Assembly (NCBI GenBank): GCA_030635055.1
Contig: DAOVZN010000003.1
Span: 4,121-68,120, forward strand
Direction of reading: 5' to 3'
DNA length: 64,000 nt
Source: a bacterium
GTDB lineage: Bacteria > Patescibacteriota > Minisyncoccia > Minisyncoccales > JAGLPU01
Part shown: positions 54,415 to 62,942 of the stretch, in pieces
Numbering within the stretch: position 1 is the first letter of the stretch
How the letters are laid out: every line of letters begins with the position of its first letter
Program-made: the position numbers and the translations under genes
The notes under the pieces: generated by a model
Databases searched by the model: none
Told to the model about the DNA's origin: nothing
What the model saw: only the letters and a program-made list of their open reading frames with translations

Positions 54415-54488
54415 ATTGCACTGATTTCTCTTCATACACAAGCGGAAACAATGGTGAAAAAACGAGAAGGGAAATAACTTCTCAAAAT

Positions 54489-54520
54489 AGCGGTAAAAGA
54501 AATTTATTTCTTTTACCGCT
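54489..54520 (+). terminator. hairpin of cassette B
   Basis: Perfect 15-bp stem AGCGGTAAAAGAAAT-TT-ATTTCTTTTACCGCT. The T-run starts 5 nt downstream. Confidence 0.6.
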
Positions 54521-54620
54521 CACACTTTTTTACACACGCTCAATTGCGTGCTTAAACTTTGTCTACCGCAGATATTGCAAATTAAACCGCGAAAGTTTTA
54601 ACCGGTTAAATCAAATAAAG

Positions 54621-54652
54621 AACGCATATGACACGGGCGTGTCATATGCGTT
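54621..54652. repeat. perfect palindrome 1
   Basis: AACGCATATGACACG-GG-CGTGTCATATGCGTT. Confidence 0.85.
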
Positions 54653-54688
54653 ACTTGACTTTTCTTGCGGTCGCAAGAAAAGTCAAGT
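54653..54688. repeat. perfect palindrome 2, abutting palindrome 1
   Basis: ACTTGACTTTTCTTGCG-GT-CGCAAGAAAAGTCAAGT. Confidence 0.85.
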
Positions 54689-54765
54689 TCTATTTCAGAC
54701 TAATTAAAATTCTAGAAAAGGACGAGACCCGACCTCCTTCATTCTTTTGCATTAGACAATCCCAA

Positions 54766-55937: not shown

Positions 55938-56010
55938 CAACTGTAGGTTATAATTTGCAACACAAGACAATTCTTGAGTTGTAGATTATAAATTGCAGAC
56001 TAACAGACAA

Positions 56011-56700
56011 ATGAAAGATTTTGCACTTTTGGAAAAAAAACTGGATGTTAATTTTATCAATAAAGATTTATTAACCCAAGCTTTCATCCATCGTTCTTAC
56101 TTAAACGAAAACCCGAATGCCGGTCTTTGCCATAATGAAAGACTGGAATTTCTCGGCGATGCGGTTCTAGAGCTGGTTGTAACCGACTATCTTTATCAAG
56201 AATATCCTGACAAGGCGGAAGGAGAATTGACTAATTTGAGAGCGGCATTAGTAAACACAAAAATGCTTACTAAAACTTCTCAAAAATTGGGTTTTAATGA
56301 TTTTTTATTGCTTTCACGAGGAGAAGCCAAAGAAACAGGCAAAGCCAGGCAGTATATTTTAGCCAATACTTTCGAAGCTTTTATCGGCGCTGCTTTTCTT
56401 GACCAAGGATATAAGTTATGCGAAAGTTTCATTAGAAAACATATAATAGAAGAGTTGCCCGAAATTATAGCCAGCGGCCTGTATAAAGACAATAAAAGTA
56501 AGTTTCAGGAAAAAGCGCAAGAAATAACCGGAATCACTCCCGCCTATAATGTGCAAAAAGAATCCGGGCCCGACCACGCCAAACAGTTCATAACCGGCGT
56601 TTTCCTTGGTAAAGAGTTAATAGCTGAAGGCGAAGGCTCTTCTAAACAGGAAGCAGAAGAAGAAGCGGCCAAGCACGCTTTGGAAACAAAAAAATGGTAA
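56011..56700 (+). CDS. rnc: ribonuclease III
   Basis: Start at ATG 56011 (MKDFALLEKKLDVNF). Signature HNERLEFLGDAVLELVV. dsRBD at the C-terminus. Confidence 0.92.
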   Translation: MKDFALLEKKLDVNFINKDLLTQAFIHRSYLNENPNAGLCHNERLEFLGDAVLELVVTDYLYQEYPDKAEGELTNLRAALVNTKMLTKTSQKLGFNDFLLLSRGEAKETGKARQYILANTFEAFIGAAFLDQGYKLCESFIRKHIIEELPEIIASGLYKDNKSKFQEKAQEITGITPAYNVQKESGPDHAKQFITGVFLGKELIAEGEGSSKQEAEEEAAKHALETKKW

Positions 56701-57359: not shown

Positions 57360-57683
57360 ATGGCAAATAATTCAGATAAAGAATTTCTTGAGACTATAGT
57401 CAAAGCTTTAGTTGACAACCCGGATGATGTAAAAATTGACAGATCAGTGGATGAAATGGGAGTTTTACTTAATTTAAAAGTAAACCCCGAAGACATGGGA
57501 CAAATTATCGGGAAAAGCGGTTCAACCGCTAGAGCTATCAGAAGCTTGGTTAGAATTATCGGTCTTAAAAATCATGCTCGCGTGAATTTAAAGATTGAAG
57601 AACCAGAAGGAGGCAGAGCCCCTAGAAGCAGTGAAACTGCAGAAACAAAACCTTCTGAAAGTTTAGAAGATTTAAAACTGTAA
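57360..57683 (+). CDS. KH-domain RNA-binding protein (YlqC/UPF0109-like)
   Basis: LVDNPDDVKIDRSVDEMGVLLNLKVNPEDMGQIIGKSGSTARAIRSLV. Usual position between rpsP and trmD. Confidence 0.85.
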   Translation: MANNSDKEFLETIVKALVDNPDDVKIDRSVDEMGVLLNLKVNPEDMGQIIGKSGSTARAIRSLVRIIGLKNHARVNLKIEEPEGGRAPRSSETAETKPSESLEDLKL

Positions 57684-57752: not shown

Positions 57753-58430
57753 ATGATAAAATTTGATATCATCACTATTTTCCCTGACATTTTTAACTCC
57801 TACTTTGAGGAGAGCATAATCAAACGAGCTCAAGGGAAAAAGTTAATAAAAATCAATACTCACAATTTGCGTGATTGGACTTCAGACAAACATAAAACTC
57901 TTGACGATAAACCGTTTGGCGGGGGAGCCGGAATGGTCTTAAAAGTTGAGCCTATTTATAGGGCGGTTGAAAAGTTAAAAAAGAAAAAGAACAGCAAGAT
58001 TGTTTTATTAAGCGCCAAAGGAAAGAAGTTTGACCAAGAGATGGCAAGAAAATTCTCTAAATTGGAACAGATCATTTTAATCTGCGGCCGCTATGAAGGA
58101 GTTGACGAAAGAGTGGCTAAACATATTGCCGATGAAGAAATCTCCATTGGTGATTATGTTTTAACCGGAGGAGAACTGCCAGCCATGGCAATCGTGGACG
58201 CGGTATCCAGATTAGTTCCGGGCGTGATAAAAGAAAAATCGCTAAGTGAAGAATCTTTTGAGACAGCCGGTTCTTTGGAGTATCCTCAATACACCAGACC
58301 GGAAATATTTTTACCCAAAGGAAGCAAGAGAGCTTGGAAAGCTCCCAAAGTGCTGCTTTCAGGAAATCATAAAGAAATAGGAGAATGGCAAGCAAAACAC
58401 AAAAAAACAGCAAAAAGAATTGAAAAATAA
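57753..58430 (+). CDS. trmD: tRNA (guanine37-N1)-methyltransferase
   Basis: Start at ATG 57753 (MIKFDIITIFPDIF). GRYEGVDERV...SIGDYVLTGGELPAMAIVDAVSRLVPGV. Confidence 0.93.
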   Translation: MIKFDIITIFPDIFNSYFEESIIKRAQGKKLIKINTHNLRDWTSDKHKTLDDKPFGGGAGMVLKVEPIYRAVEKLKKKKNSKIVLLSAKGKKFDQEMARKFSKLEQIILICGRYEGVDERVAKHIADEEISIGDYVLTGGELPAMAIVDAVSRLVPGVIKEKSLSEESFETAGSLEYPQYTRPEIFLPKGSKRAWKAPKVLLSGNHKEIGEWQAKHKKTAKRIEK

Positions 58431-58456
58431 ATATTTTTGTGATAGCATTGCAACAT

Positions 58457-58540
58457 GGGTAGGTGGCGGAGTGGTCAAACGCACGAGTCTGTAAAACTCG
58501 CGGCTTTATGCCTACGGGGGTTCAAGTCCCTCCCTGCCCG
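58457..58540 (+). tRNA. tRNA-Tyr (GTA)
   Basis: GGGTAGG/CCTGCCC acceptor, anticodon stem CGAGT/ACTCG with loop CTGTAAA, long variable arm, T arm GGGGG-TTCAAGT-CCCTC. Confidence 0.88.
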
Positions 58541-58548
58541 CACAATGC

Positions 58549-58621
58549 GCCAGGGTAGCTCAGTTGGTAGAGCATTCCCATGGTAAGGGAAAGGTCGCGA
58601 GTTCGAATCTCGCCTCTGGCT
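58549..58621 (+). tRNA. tRNA-Thr (GGT)
   Basis: GCCAGGG/CTCTGGC acceptor, D arm GCTC-AGTTGGTA-GAGC, anticodon stem TTCCC/GGGAA with loop ATGGTAA, T arm GCGAG-TTCGAAT-CTCGC. Confidence 0.9.
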
Positions 58622-58655
58622 CAGAACCAACACTATATTATTAAACAAAAGAAAT

Positions 58656-58817
58656 ATGGCAACTAAAAAACCTTTTACAAAGCTACGCTGCCAGGATTGT
58701 AAGGAAATAAATTACTTTACACATAAAACCAAACAAGTAGCTGACACAAAACTGGAAATGAAAAAATTCTGCAACACTTGCAGAAAACATACTGTCCATA
58801 AGGAAATGAAAAAATAG
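58656..58817 (+). CDS. rpmG: 50S ribosomal protein L33
   Basis: 53-codon ORF below the track cutoff: MATKKPFTKLRCQDCKEINYFTHKTKQVADTKLEMKKFCNTCRKHTVHKEMKK. Two CxxC pairs. Embedded in the tRNA cluster. Confidence 0.9.
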   Translation: MATKKPFTKLRCQDCKEINYFTHKTKQVADTKLEMKKFCNTCRKHTVHKEMKK

Positions 58818-58822
58818 TTCAG

Positions 58823-58893
58823 GGGGGTTTAGTTTAATGGCAGAATAATGGTCTCCAAAACCATTGATGGGGGTTCGACTCCCTCAACCCCTG
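58823..58893 (+). tRNA. tRNA-Trp (CCA)
   Basis: Acceptor GGGGGTT/AACCCCT (G1.U72), anticodon stem ATGGT/ACCAT with loop CTCCAAA, T arm GGGGG-TTCGACT-CCCTC, discriminator G, weak AT-rich D stem. Confidence 0.82.
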
Positions 58894-58927
58894 CAAGCTA
58901 AACATCCTCTTGTTTTCTAAATAAAAG

Positions 58928-58948
58928 TCCCCTTAACAGGGGATTTTT
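58928..58948 (+). terminator. intrinsic terminator after tRNA-Trp
   Basis: TCCCCT-TAAC-AGGGGA then TTTTT. Confidence 0.75.
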
Positions 58949-59000
58949 ATTTTTAGTTTGTAGTAAAATATAGTGTTAAAAAAAGAATAAAATATCCACA

Positions 59001-59030
59001 CTTGACAAACCTTTTTGATTTGGAATATAA
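59001..59030 (+). promoter_or_regulatory. consensus promoter of the 59.0-kb non-coding unit
   Basis: TTGACA, 18 nt, TATAAT. Confidence 0.65.
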
Positions 59031-59046
59031 TTACTAGTAGAAATTT

Positions 59047-59305
59047 AAAAAGAAGCAATATAGAGTGAGTTGTGGACAATTTTTGTAGTTTGAATTGCAA
59101 AGCAGTTTAGATTATGGAAACTAAGGGATCCCCCTCATGTATTTGGATTCTTCCTTTTTTTGAAACCTAGGTTTTAAGGAGTTTGAGAACGCCGGAAAAG
59201 GAGTGGCCAATGCAAGAGAAAGCTTTTTCTCTTTTCTTGCAAAAGACAAGAGAAGCATTCTTCATAGAATGCTATGTTTTACAACTCACTCTATATCGCT
59301 TTTTT
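59047..59305 (+). ncRNA. about 260-nt structured transcript or MITE-like element closed by a 26-bp terminal inverted repeat
   Basis: AAAAAGAAGCAATATAGAGTGAGTTGT (59047-59072) pairs with ACAACTCACTCTATATCGCTTTTTTT (59280-59305) with one mismatch and one G.U. Internal local hairpins GCATTCT/AGAATGC and GCAAGAGAAAG/CTCTTTTCTTGC. Has its own promoter and is followed by a second terminator. Confidence 0.45.
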
Positions 59306-59307
59306 TA
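59209..59307 (+). CDS. candidate 32-codon micro-ORF inside the structured unit
   Basis: AAGGAG, 6 nt, ATG. MQEKAFSLFLQKTREAFFIECYVLQLTLYRFF. Its last 9 codons form the 3' arm of the terminal inverted repeat. Confidence 0.3.
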
Positions 59308-59309
59308 AA

Positions 59310-59342
59310 GCAAGGTTCTGCCTAAACAGAACCTTGTTTTTT
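59310..59342 (+). terminator. intrinsic terminator
   Basis: CAAGGTTCTG-CCTAAA-CAGAACCTTG followed by T7. Confidence 0.8.
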
Positions 59343-59389
59343 TGTTGGAAAATTGCTAAAATATATTACTAATATCTAATCTAAAAACT

Positions 59390-61000
59390 ATGAACAAAAA
59401 AATCATCATTGTCTTAGTTCTCATTGTTTCAGCTATTCTTCTCTACCAAGTTATTTTCAAGGAAAGCGAGCCTGAATACACTTTGACTGAAGTAAAAAGA
59501 GATACTGTTGTCCAAGAAATCTCTGAGACAGGTATGGTCAAAAGGGGAGAAAAAATAGGACTCAGTTTTGAAAACACCGGACGAATTGCCGCGGTGAATA
59601 TCAGTGTTGGAGATATAGTAAAGGCGGGACAAGCTTTAGCCAGCCTGGAAACCAGCCAATTGCAAATCCAGCTTCAAGAAGCATCTGCCGCTTTGGAATT
59701 ATCTCAGGCCGAACTTAATAAACTACTGTCCGGAGCCAGCGCAGAAACAATACGAGTCGCTCAAACAGCAGTTGATAATGCTGAAATAAGCCTGGAAAAC
59801 GCGCAACAAAACGAACAAAATGTAAAAGTCATTGCTCAAGAGGATATAGAGCAGGACTATGAAGATGGTTTAAATTCTTTAGACGACGCTTATCTAAAAA
59901 TATATAACGCATATAATGCAATAGATTCTTTACAAAGAACCTATTTTAGCGGCAACGACCAAGAAAGCATTACAGTTAAGGGGAGCAAAACAACCATAGA
60001 AAATGCTATGCTCCAAACAGAGCCATATATCGCCGACGCTAAAAGTTCAGGAGAGAACGAAAGCATTGATATGGCTTTAATTGAAGTAAAAGACGCTTTA
60101 AATAAAATCTATAACGCTCTGGAAATAACCAGGGAGACATGCGAAGCAATAACTTATCGCGACACAGTTTCCTCAACCGACAAAACAACGATAGACACTC
60201 AAAAAACAAATATCAACACCAGTTTGACCAGTATTATCAGCGCTCAGCAAGCCATAGCTTCAACTAAGCTGACTAATGCCTCTAATATCAATACTGCTGA
60301 ATCTTCAACAGCCACGGCCGAAGGAGTTTTAAAAACAGCTCAAGACAACCTGGCTTTAACCACAGCCGACCCGCGTCAAGAAGATATTGTTTTATATCAA
60401 GCCAAAGTTCAACGGGCCCAATCTAATCTAGCCTTGCTTAAGAATCAAATCGCCAAAGCCACTTTGTTCTGCCCGACAAACGGACAGGTTATAGGAGTGG
60501 ATAAAAAAGTTGGAGAGATGGTTCAACCAACAGGTATTATTATCACGCTTCTGCCTTCAATCCCATTTCAAATAGAAACAGATATTTACGAAGAAGATAT
60601 CGTAAAGATAAATATTGGAAATCCGGTAGATATTTTTTTAATCGCCTTTCCCGACCAAATTTTTAAAGGCAAGGTTATGTTCGTTGATCCGGCTGAAAAA
60701 CTGATGGATGGAGTAGTTTATTACAAAATAATTATTGATTTTTCCGATGGAATTGAAGAATCACTGGAGGGAGTCAAACAGGGGATGACAGCTGATTTAA
60801 TCATTAAAACAGCTCAAAAAGAAAATGTTTTAGTCATTGATGAAGATGCAGTTCAGGAAAAAGACGATAAAGTTTTTGTTGAAGTTTTAACAGATGGGAA
60901 AATTGAAGAGAGAGAAATAGAAACAGGTCTTTTGGGCAGTAATGATATGATGGAAATTATCTCAGGACTAGAAGCCGGAGAAAAAGTAATTTTAAGATAA
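59390..61000 (+). CDS. efflux periplasmic adaptor (HlyD/MacA-like)
   Basis: N-terminal TM. Barrel-sandwich GRIAAVNISVGDIVKAGQALASLE. Long coiled-coil hairpin. C-terminal beta domains. Precedes the MacB-type ABC pair. Confidence 0.8.
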   Translation: MNKKIIIVLVLIVSAILLYQVIFKESEPEYTLTEVKRDTVVQEISETGMVKRGEKIGLSFENTGRIAAVNISVGDIVKAGQALASLETSQLQIQLQEASAALELSQAELNKLLSGASAETIRVAQTAVDNAEISLENAQQNEQNVKVIAQEDIEQDYEDGLNSLDDAYLKIYNAYNAIDSLQRTYFSGNDQESITVKGSKTTIENAMLQTEPYIADAKSSGENESIDMALIEVKDALNKIYNALEITRETCEAITYRDTVSSTDKTTIDTQKTNINTSLTSIISAQQAIASTKLTNASNINTAESSTATAEGVLKTAQDNLALTTADPRQEDIVLYQAKVQRAQSNLALLKNQIAKATLFCPTNGQVIGVDKKVGEMVQPTGIIITLLPSIPFQIETDIYEEDIVKINIGNPVDIFLIAFPDQIFKGKVMFVDPAEKLMDGVVYYKIIIDFSDGIEESLEGVKQGMTADLIIKTAQKENVLVIDEDAVQEKDDKVFVEVLTDGKIEEREIETGLLGSNDMMEIISGLEAGEKVILR

Positions 61001-61008
61001 ACTTTAAG

Positions 61009-61725
61009 ATGAACATAGAGCCAATTATTAAACTAGAGAATGTCTGGAAGATTTATCAACTAGGCAAAACAGAATTGGCCGCTTTGAGAGGATTGAGCCT
61101 GGAAATTAATCCAGGCGATTTTGTCGCTATTATGGGAGCTTCCGGGTCTGGAAAATCCACTCTTTTAAATATGATTGGATGCCTGGATTCTCCAAGCAGG
61201 GGGGAAATTTATCTAAAAGGAAAAAATATCGCAAAGATGCCGGAAAGCGAACTTTCTCAGTTTAGAGGAAAAGTGTTGGGATTTGTTTTTCAAGAATTTA
61301 ATTTAATCCCAAACATCAACTGTCTAGAAAATGTAATGCTTCCTATGATATTTCAAAGAGTCCCGTTTTTAAAAAGAAAAGCAAAAGCAGAAGAGATTTT
61401 AAAAATGGTTGGATTGGAAAAAAGGATGGTTCATCAACCGGCAGAACTTTCCGGAGGAGAAAGGCAGAGAGTGGCGCTGGCAAGAGCTTTTGCCAATGAC
61501 CCGGAAGTGATCATAGCCGATGAACCAACCGGAAATCTTGATTCAACCACCGGAAAGATGATAATGGAATTTTTGAAAACTTTTCATGAAAAACGGGGAA
61601 AGACAATGATTATTGTGACCCATGATCCAAAAATCGCAAATTATGCCGAAAAAATAATAAACATTAAAGACGGACAAATAGTTAAAAATGGCTTAACAGC
61701 TAAGGAATCTTTATGGAAGAACTAA
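61009..61725 (+). CDS. ABC transporter ATP-binding protein (MacB/LolD type)
   Basis: Walker A GASGSGKST, signature LSGGERQRVALARA, Walker B VIIADEPTGNLD. Confidence 0.92.
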   Translation: MNIEPIIKLENVWKIYQLGKTELAALRGLSLEINPGDFVAIMGASGSGKSTLLNMIGCLDSPSRGEIYLKGKNIAKMPESELSQFRGKVLGFVFQEFNLIPNINCLENVMLPMIFQRVPFLKRKAKAEEILKMVGLEKRMVHQPAELSGGERQRVALARAFANDPEVIIADEPTGNLDSTTGKMIMEFLKTFHEKRGKTMIIVTHDPKIANYAEKIINIKDGQIVKNGLTAKESLWKN

Positions 61726-62942
61726 AAGAATATTTTAGGATCGCATTTAGAAATATAAAGACCAGACGCCTAAGAAGCTTCTTGACTGTTTTAGGTATTG
61801 TTATCGGCGTGTTTTTAATAGTTTCCTTGCTTTCTTTGAGCGAAGGATTAAAAACAACCATTAACCAGCAATTACAGGCAATGGGCGGAGAAATGGTTAT
61901 GGTGATGCCCGGCGGTGAGGAAGACATTTTAACGAGCATGATGTTCGGCGGCGCCAAATTAGAAAAAGAAGATATTGAGGCAATTAAAAAAGCAAAAGGC
62001 GTAGATGAGGTTTTGGGAATTTCCTACACCGGAACAGTAGCCAGATACAAAGACGAATCAAAACAAATTGCCATGTGCGGTTATGAACCATGGAAAGAAG
62101 GTTTGGATATTTTAAGTATTTTTCAGGGTTGGAGTTTGACTGAAGGAAGATGGCCCAGCAAGGGAAATCAGCTTTTAATCGGCCAATATGTAGCCAATGA
62201 AACTTTCTCAAAAAAGGTAAAAGCAGGCTCGGAAATGACGATAAAAGGGAAAAAATTTGAGGTGGCGGGAATATTGGATTCTTTAGGAAGTCGACAAGAT
62301 GACAGTATGGTTTATATGGATATGAAGGTATATCAAGAGCTGACAGGAGAGAAACGCGGCAGTGCCGCGTACGCCATGGTTAAACTTGAAGAAGGAGCAG
62401 ATGAAAACATCGTGAAAACAGAAATTGAAAGCAGCCTTGAAGAAACAAGAAAAAGAAGGGCTGACACCGATGTGGCTGATTTTTCTGTTATTACCTCAGA
62501 AAAGATGTCAGAGATAACCGGCACTATTTTAGGAATAATTGAGGTTGTTATTATTGGATTTGCCAGCATTGCCATTCTCGTGGGAGGTATTGGAATCACA
62601 AACAGCATGTTCACTTCAATCAGAGAAAGGACCAAAGAAATTGGAATTATGAAAGCAATTGGGGCTAAAAATTCAGCAATTCTGTCAATTTTCTTGATTG
62701 AAGCGGGAATAGTAGGAATTTTGGGAGGTCTGGGCGGAGTATTGCTGGGAAGTATTCTTGCCAAAGCAATTGATTATTATGGCCAGGCAAACCCAACCTT
62801 TTATTTCACAACAACTATTTCTCCTTGGATGATCATTTTCGCTATCATTTTTTCATTTTCCATAGGATGTTTGGCGGGATTTTTTCCAGCCAGAGCGGCT
62901 GCCAAACTCAAGCCGGTTGAGGCTTTAAGAAAATATGAGTGA
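61713..62942 (+). CDS. ABC transporter permease (FtsX/MacB type)
   Basis: TM1, large periplasmic domain, then three C-terminal TMs with the FtsX motif RTKEIGIMKAIGA. Overlaps the ATPase gene. Confidence 0.88.
   Translation: MEELKEYFRIAFRNIKTRRLRSFLTVLGIVIGVFLIVSLLSLSEGLKTTINQQLQAMGGEMVMVMPGGEEDILTSMMFGGAKLEKEDIEAIKKAKGVDEVLGISYTGTVARYKDESKQIAMCGYEPWKEGLDILSIFQGWSLTEGRWPSKGNQLLIGQYVANETFSKKVKAGSEMTIKGKKFEVAGILDSLGSRQDDSMVYMDMKVYQELTGEKRGSAAYAMVKLEEGADENIVKTEIESSLEETRKRRADTDVADFSVITSEKMSEITGTILGIIEVVIIGFASIAILVGGIGITNSMFTSIRERTKEIGIMKAIGAKNSAILSIFLIEAGIVGILGGLGGVLLGSILAKAIDYYGQANPTFYFTTTISPWMIIFAIIFSFSIGCLAGFFPARAAAKLKPVEALRKYE

Follow-up and report, generated by a model that had tools for sequence, protein, structure and literature searches.

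Gene order and transcription signals

The window, a 64,000-nt stretch of a metagenome-assembled bacterial genome (768 kb in 25 contigs, 89.6% complete), carries a short transcription unit directly upstream of an efflux operon encoding an HlyD-type adaptor, an ABC ATPase and a MacB/FtsX permease, which is followed by a PCMT gene. On the other side of the unit lie tRNA-Tyr, tRNA-Thr, rpmG and tRNA-Trp, the last with a terminator of its own at 58919–58952. The original prediction, made from the sequence of the window, had placed the unit next to a tRNA cluster. This holds loosely here, where the slot from the tRNA-Trp terminator to the promoter of the unit is empty (58953–58990); in relatives, unrelated small genes part the RNA from tRNA-Trp. 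The downstream neighbor is constant: in all copies that we recovered, the RNA stands directly upstream of the same MacB-type efflux operon, on the same strand and 45–75 nt away.

A consensus sigma-70-type promoter (TTGACA, 18 nt, TATAAT) had been proposed at the head of the unit, and a promoter scan recovered it at 59002–59031 with 12 of 12 matches. The promoter block of about 42 nt is nearly invariant across all six full-length copies in our alignment, in contrast to the 5′ tail that follows it (59038–59047), which varies more than any other part of the unit. The proposed second terminator is present as well, at 59307–59340 plus a T-run in a terminator scan; it is kept in all copies, with a stem sequence that is altered between them. 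These signals delimit a predicted primary transcript of ~300 nt, and the whole RNA measures about 260–300 nt. The ORF list bears out that no ORF of at least 60 aa lies inside the unit, and the promoter scan found no promoter-like site on its minus strand (Table 1).

Table 1. Features of the structured RNA unit and its downstream neighbors, in positions of the window
Feature	Position	Strand	Basis or detail
Promoter block	58990–59031	+	−35 TTGACA 59002–59007, 18-nt spacer, −10 TATAAT 59026–59031
Predicted transcription start (~59038–59040) and short unpaired 5′ tail	59038–59047	+	Inferred from the −10 position
P1, 5′ strand of the 31-bp closing helix	59048–59078	+	Helix 1, 98.9% paired
P2, 18–19-bp hairpin, G.U-rich, AAA loop	59081–59120	+	Helix 2, 99.1% paired
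Invariant junction AAGGGAUCCCCC, holding the 8-nt palindrome GGGAUCCC	59123–59134	+	Invariant in six copies
Branched domain P4–P8	59134–59218	+	Consensus fold
P4, encloses P5–P8	59134–59141 with 59211–59218	+	Two pairs changed on both sides
P6	59154–59160 with 59195–59201	+	One pair changed on both sides
P7 hairpin, CUAG loop	59161–59176	+	Consensus fold
P8 hairpin	59178–59193	+	Two pairs changed on both sides
32-codon ORF of the original prediction, no conserved coding frame	59210–59308	+	Six-copy alignment
P9, 12-bp hairpin	59227–59254	+	Helix 9, 98.6% paired; one pair changed on both sides
P10, 7-bp hairpin GCAUUCU/AGAAUGC	59255–59272	+	C-G to U-A in L062; A-U to G.U in three copies
P1, 3′ strand, ends in a U7 run pairing with the 5′ A-run	59275–59306	+	Inverted-repeat search and consensus
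Intrinsic terminator, 14-pair stem, 6-nt loop, T-run	59307–59346	+	Terminator scan; helix 11 of the consensus
Spacer before the HlyD-type adaptor gene, weak promoter-like elements (TGnTAAAAT 59354–59362)	59347–59389	+	Read from the sequence
Downstream operon: HlyD-type adaptor, ABC ATPase, MacB/FtsX permease	59390–62942	+	Pfam, gene order

Two genes for RNA-handling proteins lie further upstream. The rnc gene, encoding an RNase III with a dsRBD, is located at 55993–56700, 2.3 kb upstream of the RNA, and a KhpA-type KH-domain RNA-binding protein is encoded at 57360–57683, between rpsP and trmD. Since a search for CsrA gave nothing, the KhpA-type protein is a candidate general sRNA-binding protein. 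Of the Hfq-independent alternatives, neither CsrA nor Ro was found in this genome, and SRP was not found either.

Fold and covariation of the RNA

The 306-nt stretch folds with a minimum free energy of −117.9 kcal/mol, against −68.4 ± 5.1 kcal/mol for dinucleotide shuffles (z = −9.69), and none of 100 shuffles was as good. On a composition-corrected, genome-wide scale the unit reaches a z score of about −6.4 to −6.8, level with the strongest intergenic segment and well past the RNase P RNA (−2.2) and tmRNA (−2.7) of the same genome; by folding strength it ranks in the top two of the genome's non-coding stretches. The genome folding scan covered intergenic regions in 250-nt windows, too short for the closing helix P1, and the unit was therefore scored separately. 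The strongest-folding intergenic 250-nt segment of the genome lies at 54455–54704 (58575–58824 of contig C19 of this genome, G000), has a composition-corrected z of −6.85, and coincides with abutting palindromes in a cassette array.

An inverted repeat joining the two ends of the unit had been pointed out previously. We found its arms at 59045–59073 and 59281–59309, each of 29 nt, 90% complementary and 207 nt apart, and with G.U pairs the repeat grows to 31 RNA pairs (59048–59078 with 59275–59306). The two local hairpins named in the same prediction are also present, at 59255–59272 (GCAUUCU/AGAAUGC) and 59227–59254. RNAalifold analysis of a six-sequence alignment (A6) of full-length copies resulted in a consensus of 110 pairs in 11 helices. 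In this model, P1 closes a four-way junction of P2, the branched domain P4–P8, and the hairpins P9 and P10. Five pairs of P2 vary on one side, and the 5′ strand of P9 has an alternative partner at 59215–59225. Three unpaired segments are invariant, namely AAGGGAUCCCCC at the junction, CCGGAAAAG at 59193–59201 and AAAGCUUU at 59220–59227; the junction sequence occurs once in the genome.

A covariation check with homologs, suggested at the outset, supports these helices. Across the six full-length sequences, 98.3% of cells are paired and eight pairs are changed on both sides, compared with 1.5 ± 1.1 both-side changes in 500 shuffles, none of which reached 8. Slid controls were 43–54% paired and had at most 2 both-side-changed pairs. 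Among the changes that keep pairing, P4 shows C-G to U-A and U.G to C-G or U-A. In P1, the pair 59061/59293 is U-A, G.U or A-U depending on the copy, and the A.C mismatch 59057/59297 becomes A-U in relatives. The many G.U pairs, together with the U-A to G.U change in P1, indicate an RNA read from the + strand only; with the covariance model R1, the reverse strand scores 64 bits vs. 297. All copies are close kin (five of the six full-length ones are 86–99% alike) and most of the double changes split the window’s copy from the other five, so that the eight changed pairs stand for few independent covariation events.

Distribution and the neighboring gene slot

Five further full-length copies were found, all in the same genus: one in a species genome (G001, a MAG record) and four on metagenome contigs (L062, L061, L060, and L059). 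A sixth further copy is partial: it lacks its 5′ part and sits at a contig end in both L063 and L064. Identity among the six full-length sequences is 74–99%, with the window’s copy as the outlier. R1 matches all copies, the partial one included, at 96–299 bits, with those of L062, L061, L060, and L059 at 260–270 bits. The further contigs, which come from one cold-seep study, were reached via the downstream HlyD-type protein as an anchor, through four protein clusters of 80–81% identity. The assembled genome of the window has a single copy.

Searches of wider scope gave nothing credible outside the genus. A BLAST search with the unit, begun on 61 genomes of the order and widened to 401, revealed only the same-genus G001, all other matches being of 18–40 nt, of low complexity and inside coding regions. 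R1, run over 151 genomes of the order, gave other matches of at most 18.5 bits that were hairpin-only, and a pattern scan of genome contigs returned G001 alone. With the HlyD protein as anchor, a scan of metagenomes yielded seven loci, none of them with the RNA, and short contigs searched for N-terminal fragments of HlyD had none. Phage and plasmid collections contained no match to the RNA; viral contigs gave one 17-mer chance match in GC-rich DNA, and nothing with a two-motif pattern. The public runs in which the stretch is found are DNA runs of cold-seep and sediment metagenomes only, with no RNA run listed, and they contain at least one further variant besides the recovered copies. A third, more divergent RNA lineage is present in the cold-seep run X2, at the equivalent of 59078–59135 of the window, with a 5′ arm reading ...AAAAAGCAGTAAAGAGTGAGTTGCGGACA. 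As sampled here, the RNA appears to be a genus-level innovation of one ultra-small Parcubacteria genus from cold-seep sediment.

Equivalent places were compared in L004, L059, L060, L062, L066, and L067. Between the tRNA-Trp terminator and the RNA promoter, the slot carries genes for small membrane proteins, of 117 aa in G001, 116 aa in L059 and L060, and 73 aa in L062, all mutually unrelated. In sister genera, in which the adaptor is 55–57% identical, the order is trmD, tRNAs, rpmG, tRNA-Trp, variable small genes, HlyD. The slot genes there are MazG, a phage holin, DUF5674 with a conserved ~110-aa gene, and others; only 133–270 nt lie ahead of the operon, and R1 had no match in them beyond hairpin noise. 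From these gene orders, the slot between tRNA-Trp and the efflux operon is hypervariable and the RNA is its constant border, a position that informs on how these genomes swap accessory cassettes.

Interpretation and comparison with known systems

We interpret the flagged stretch as a gene for a stand-alone, highly structured, predicted non-coding RNA that acts in trans, with P1 probably serving RNase III processing or end protection, and assign this reading a probability of roughly 0.6. Three options had originally been left open for the unit, and the one supported by our sequence comparisons is a novel structured sRNA: it has no Rfam match, shows compensatory changes across six copies, and has its own promoter and terminator. 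The RNA family is new, unusual in size and stability and narrow in distribution, but its kind, the “orphan structured sRNA gene”, is already familiar. Counting against the reading, helices of this length and perfection would be unusual in a catalytic or protein-scaffold RNA. To our knowledge, almost nothing is known of RNA-based regulation in candidate-phyla-radiation (CPR) bacteria. As CPR genomes are tiny, each strongly promoted non-coding gene that they retain is likely used. The reach of the finding is limited, the family being known from one genus only; with its clear limits, covariation support and 11 helices, the RNA lends itself to synthesis and direct probing.

The main rival, which we regard as unlikely, makes the RNA a cis-acting leader of the MacB-type efflux operon, acting by conditional read-through of P1/U7 and the terminator or by cis modulation. 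Its support comes from position: every copy, the six full-length ones as well as the partial one, has the HlyD-type gene as its immediate downstream neighbor on the same strand, the sequence on the upstream side of the RNA varies, and only about 45–75 nt separate the RNA from the operon ATG. The scan also finds no promoter at its threshold in the spacer (59347–59389) of this genome; however, three relatives (L061, L060, and L059) have TTGAAG, 18 nt, TATAAT at the equivalent place, with 9–10 of 12 matches. By inspection, the terminator stem has no alternative pairing partner, both ends are tied up in P1 irrespective of the terminator, and the stem differs between copies without matching upstream changes. 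Two termination signals in tandem point to insulation more than to control, and the orthologous operons of sister genera (55–57% protein identity) lack such a leader. Riboswitch-type leaders normally have a far wider distribution.

A doubtful alternative treats the RNA as non-coding cargo of a mobile or defense island beside tRNA-Trp, for example a decoy, an antitoxin RNA or an sRNA of phage origin, with its partner gene lost or located elsewhere. The changing occupants of the slot, unrelated small genes in close relatives and MazG, phage holin and DUF5674 in sister genera, would suit an island, as would the confinement to one genus. Among this variable cargo, however, the RNA is the constant element; phage, plasmid and viral collections hold no match to it, and it has no repeats, partner gene or adjoining reverse transcriptase.

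Far less probable is the second of the original options, in which the unit would encode a type I toxin-like peptide or another micro-protein on an mRNA silenced by 5′–3′ end pairing in the manner of hok. The proposed translation signal, AAGGAG, 6 nt, ATG ahead of a 32-codon frame, does exist, but in this genome only and with the ATG at 59210 rather than 59209, and its AUG (59210–59212) is sequestered within or next to the 3′ strand of P4, a covarying helix. In four of the six copies (L062, L061, L060, and L059) the ATG has become ATA, and AAGGAG is absent from five of six, that is, from all five relatives. G001 keeps the ATG, but a 1-nt indel shifts its frame after seven codons. The 32-aa peptide is charged throughout rather than hydrophobic and has no membrane helix, and no antisense promoter is evident. 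No ORF on either strand of the unit is conserved across the six copies, and the other recurrent short frame (59115–59171) falls in different reading frames in different copies. The lost start, lost Shine–Dalgarno motif, frame shift and non-hydrophobic peptide refute a type I toxin or micro-protein mRNA as the conserved function, and the unit is non-coding. Compared with hok-type mRNAs, the RNA has a similar long-range 5′/3′ end pairing and, in this genome, a buried start codon, but it lacks a conserved ORF and a hydrophobic peptide, and the scan gave no promoter for an antisense RNA.

The Shine–Dalgarno argument is itself weak in this organism, because the 16S rRNA gene ends without CCTCC and SD-like motifs are rare. 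The gene (G000 contig C24, minus strand, just 3′ of 23227) ends ...GGATCATTACATTT where CCTCC is expected, and a crude count places SD-like motifs ahead of only about 4% each of 517 long ORFs, with some genes carrying GGAGG. The missing anti-Shine–Dalgarno may reflect a true loss or else an artifact, of assembly or of an intron, at the rRNA end; the 3′ ends of rRNA genes in a MAG need care.

The third original option, a MITE or MITE remnant with 26–29-bp terminal inverted repeats, has in its favor the 29-nt repeat of 90% complementarity and is rejected as very improbable: a genome copy search found one copy in 768 kb (assembly 89.6% complete), all relatives have the element at one and the same locus, no direct repeat marking a target-site duplication is common to its flanks (...GAAATTT and AAAGCAAGG...), the interior helices covary, and the arm changes at 59061/59293 give G.U or A-U, preserving the RNA helix on the + strand and not the DNA repeat.

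For the preferred reading, a trans-acting structured RNA, the sequences establish the transcription signals, the fold and its conservation, the lack of coding, the single copy and the narrow distribution, and we infer expression, processing and action in trans, as in the following model. Transcription would start at the consensus promoter and stop at the intrinsic terminator, giving the ~300-nt primary transcript. The near-perfect P1 duplex would then be an RNase III substrate, a means of end protection, or both. RNase III would remove the variable 5′ tail and the terminator to leave a stable RNA of ~240–260 nt. Cleavage is predicted on the grounds that P1, with 31 bp, exceeds the minimum of about 20 bp of duplex that we took to mark an RNase III-processed RNA, and that the genome encodes RNase III. 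The processed RNA would act in trans via its conserved junction sequences, of which the invariant unpaired segments AAGGGAUCCCCC, CCGGAAAAG, and AAAGCUUU may be the likeliest functional surfaces. A protein or a second copy of the RNA would be a likelier partner than a single mRNA bound by antisense pairing. A short-word BLAST search of the assembled genome for antisense targets gave chance matches of at most 16 nt, equal on both strands. The 8-nt palindromes GGGAUCCC and AAAGCUUU, together with a self-duplex energy of about −15 kcal/mol for GGGAUCCC in a homodimer calculation, which shows feasibility and not dimer formation, make a symmetric dimer possible. A more ambitious and speculative proposal would have the RNA as the founding member of a new complex-RNA class in SRP-less, SD-poor ultra-small bacteria, a self-associating particle or protein scaffold in which the palindromes GGGAUCCC and AAAGCUUU dimerize and RNase III trims P1; we hold this to be improbable.

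The unit belongs to no Rfam family: in a cmscan search with Rfam 15, only tRNAs pass the gathering thresholds in the whole window. At E ≤ 10 over 58300–59500, again only tRNAs are credible, and the best match within the unit is to L20_leader, at 32 bits vs. a threshold of 58.7 and covering the terminator only. RNase P RNA and tmRNA were found elsewhere in the genome, and covariance models for SRP RNA (RF00169 and RF01854) and 6S RNA (RF00013) had no match in it. A second orphan RNA unit occurs in the spacer between a pilB-type ATPase and ruvB (L065:1815–2005, minus strand; G000 contig C18), with a TTGACA promoter, ~135 nt of structured RNA, a closing helix, a U-tail, and z = −6.4.

SRP RNA was rejected as an identity for the unit, as there is no RF00169, RF01854 or domain IV match and the partner Ffh is absent. 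No SRP_SPB/Ffh M domain, no SRP54-type GTPase domain (Ffh or FtsY) and no DTAGR motif was found in the genome, and searches of 26 genomes of the order and 121 of the phylum did not turn up the Ffh M domain in any of them. That Parcubacteria lack ffh and ffs has already been published (PMC4508563). In a genome without Ffh, the missing SRP RNA leaves no gap for the orphan RNA to fill. A CsrB/RsmZ-type sponge was likewise rejected, since the genome has no CsrA, although a count by eye gave five conserved GGA motifs in the alignment, and so was a bacterial Y RNA, the Ro/Rsr (TROVE) partner of which is absent.

The orphan RNA shares with 6S RNA an abundant-type promoter, the pairing of its 5′ and 3′ ends, and a gene that stands alone in a compact genome. 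Bulges interrupt the stems of known 6S RNAs; P1 of the orphan RNA, unlike these, is an uninterrupted 31-bp duplex. A 6S identity was rejected on the lack of an RF00013 match even at E ≤ 10 and on the fold, which is a four-way junction and not a rod with a central bubble. A weak 6S-like match in another genome, G018, is not syntenic.

The large structured bacterial RNAs raiA, ROOL, GOLLD, and OLE, discovered through comparative genomics and all of them in Rfam, did not match the unit. The orphan RNA differs from them in its much narrower distribution, its longer and more regular helices, and its fewer evident conserved unpaired nucleotides, and resembles them in exceeding 200 nt, in its multi-helix junction, and in having no ORF. 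The RNase III stalks of the 16S and 23S rRNA precursors enclose rRNA, whereas the RNA enclosed here is neither rRNA nor any known stable RNA and its cleavage is predicted only; in both cases a long, near-perfect duplex is formed from the flanks of a structured RNA, and the genome studied here encodes RNase III.
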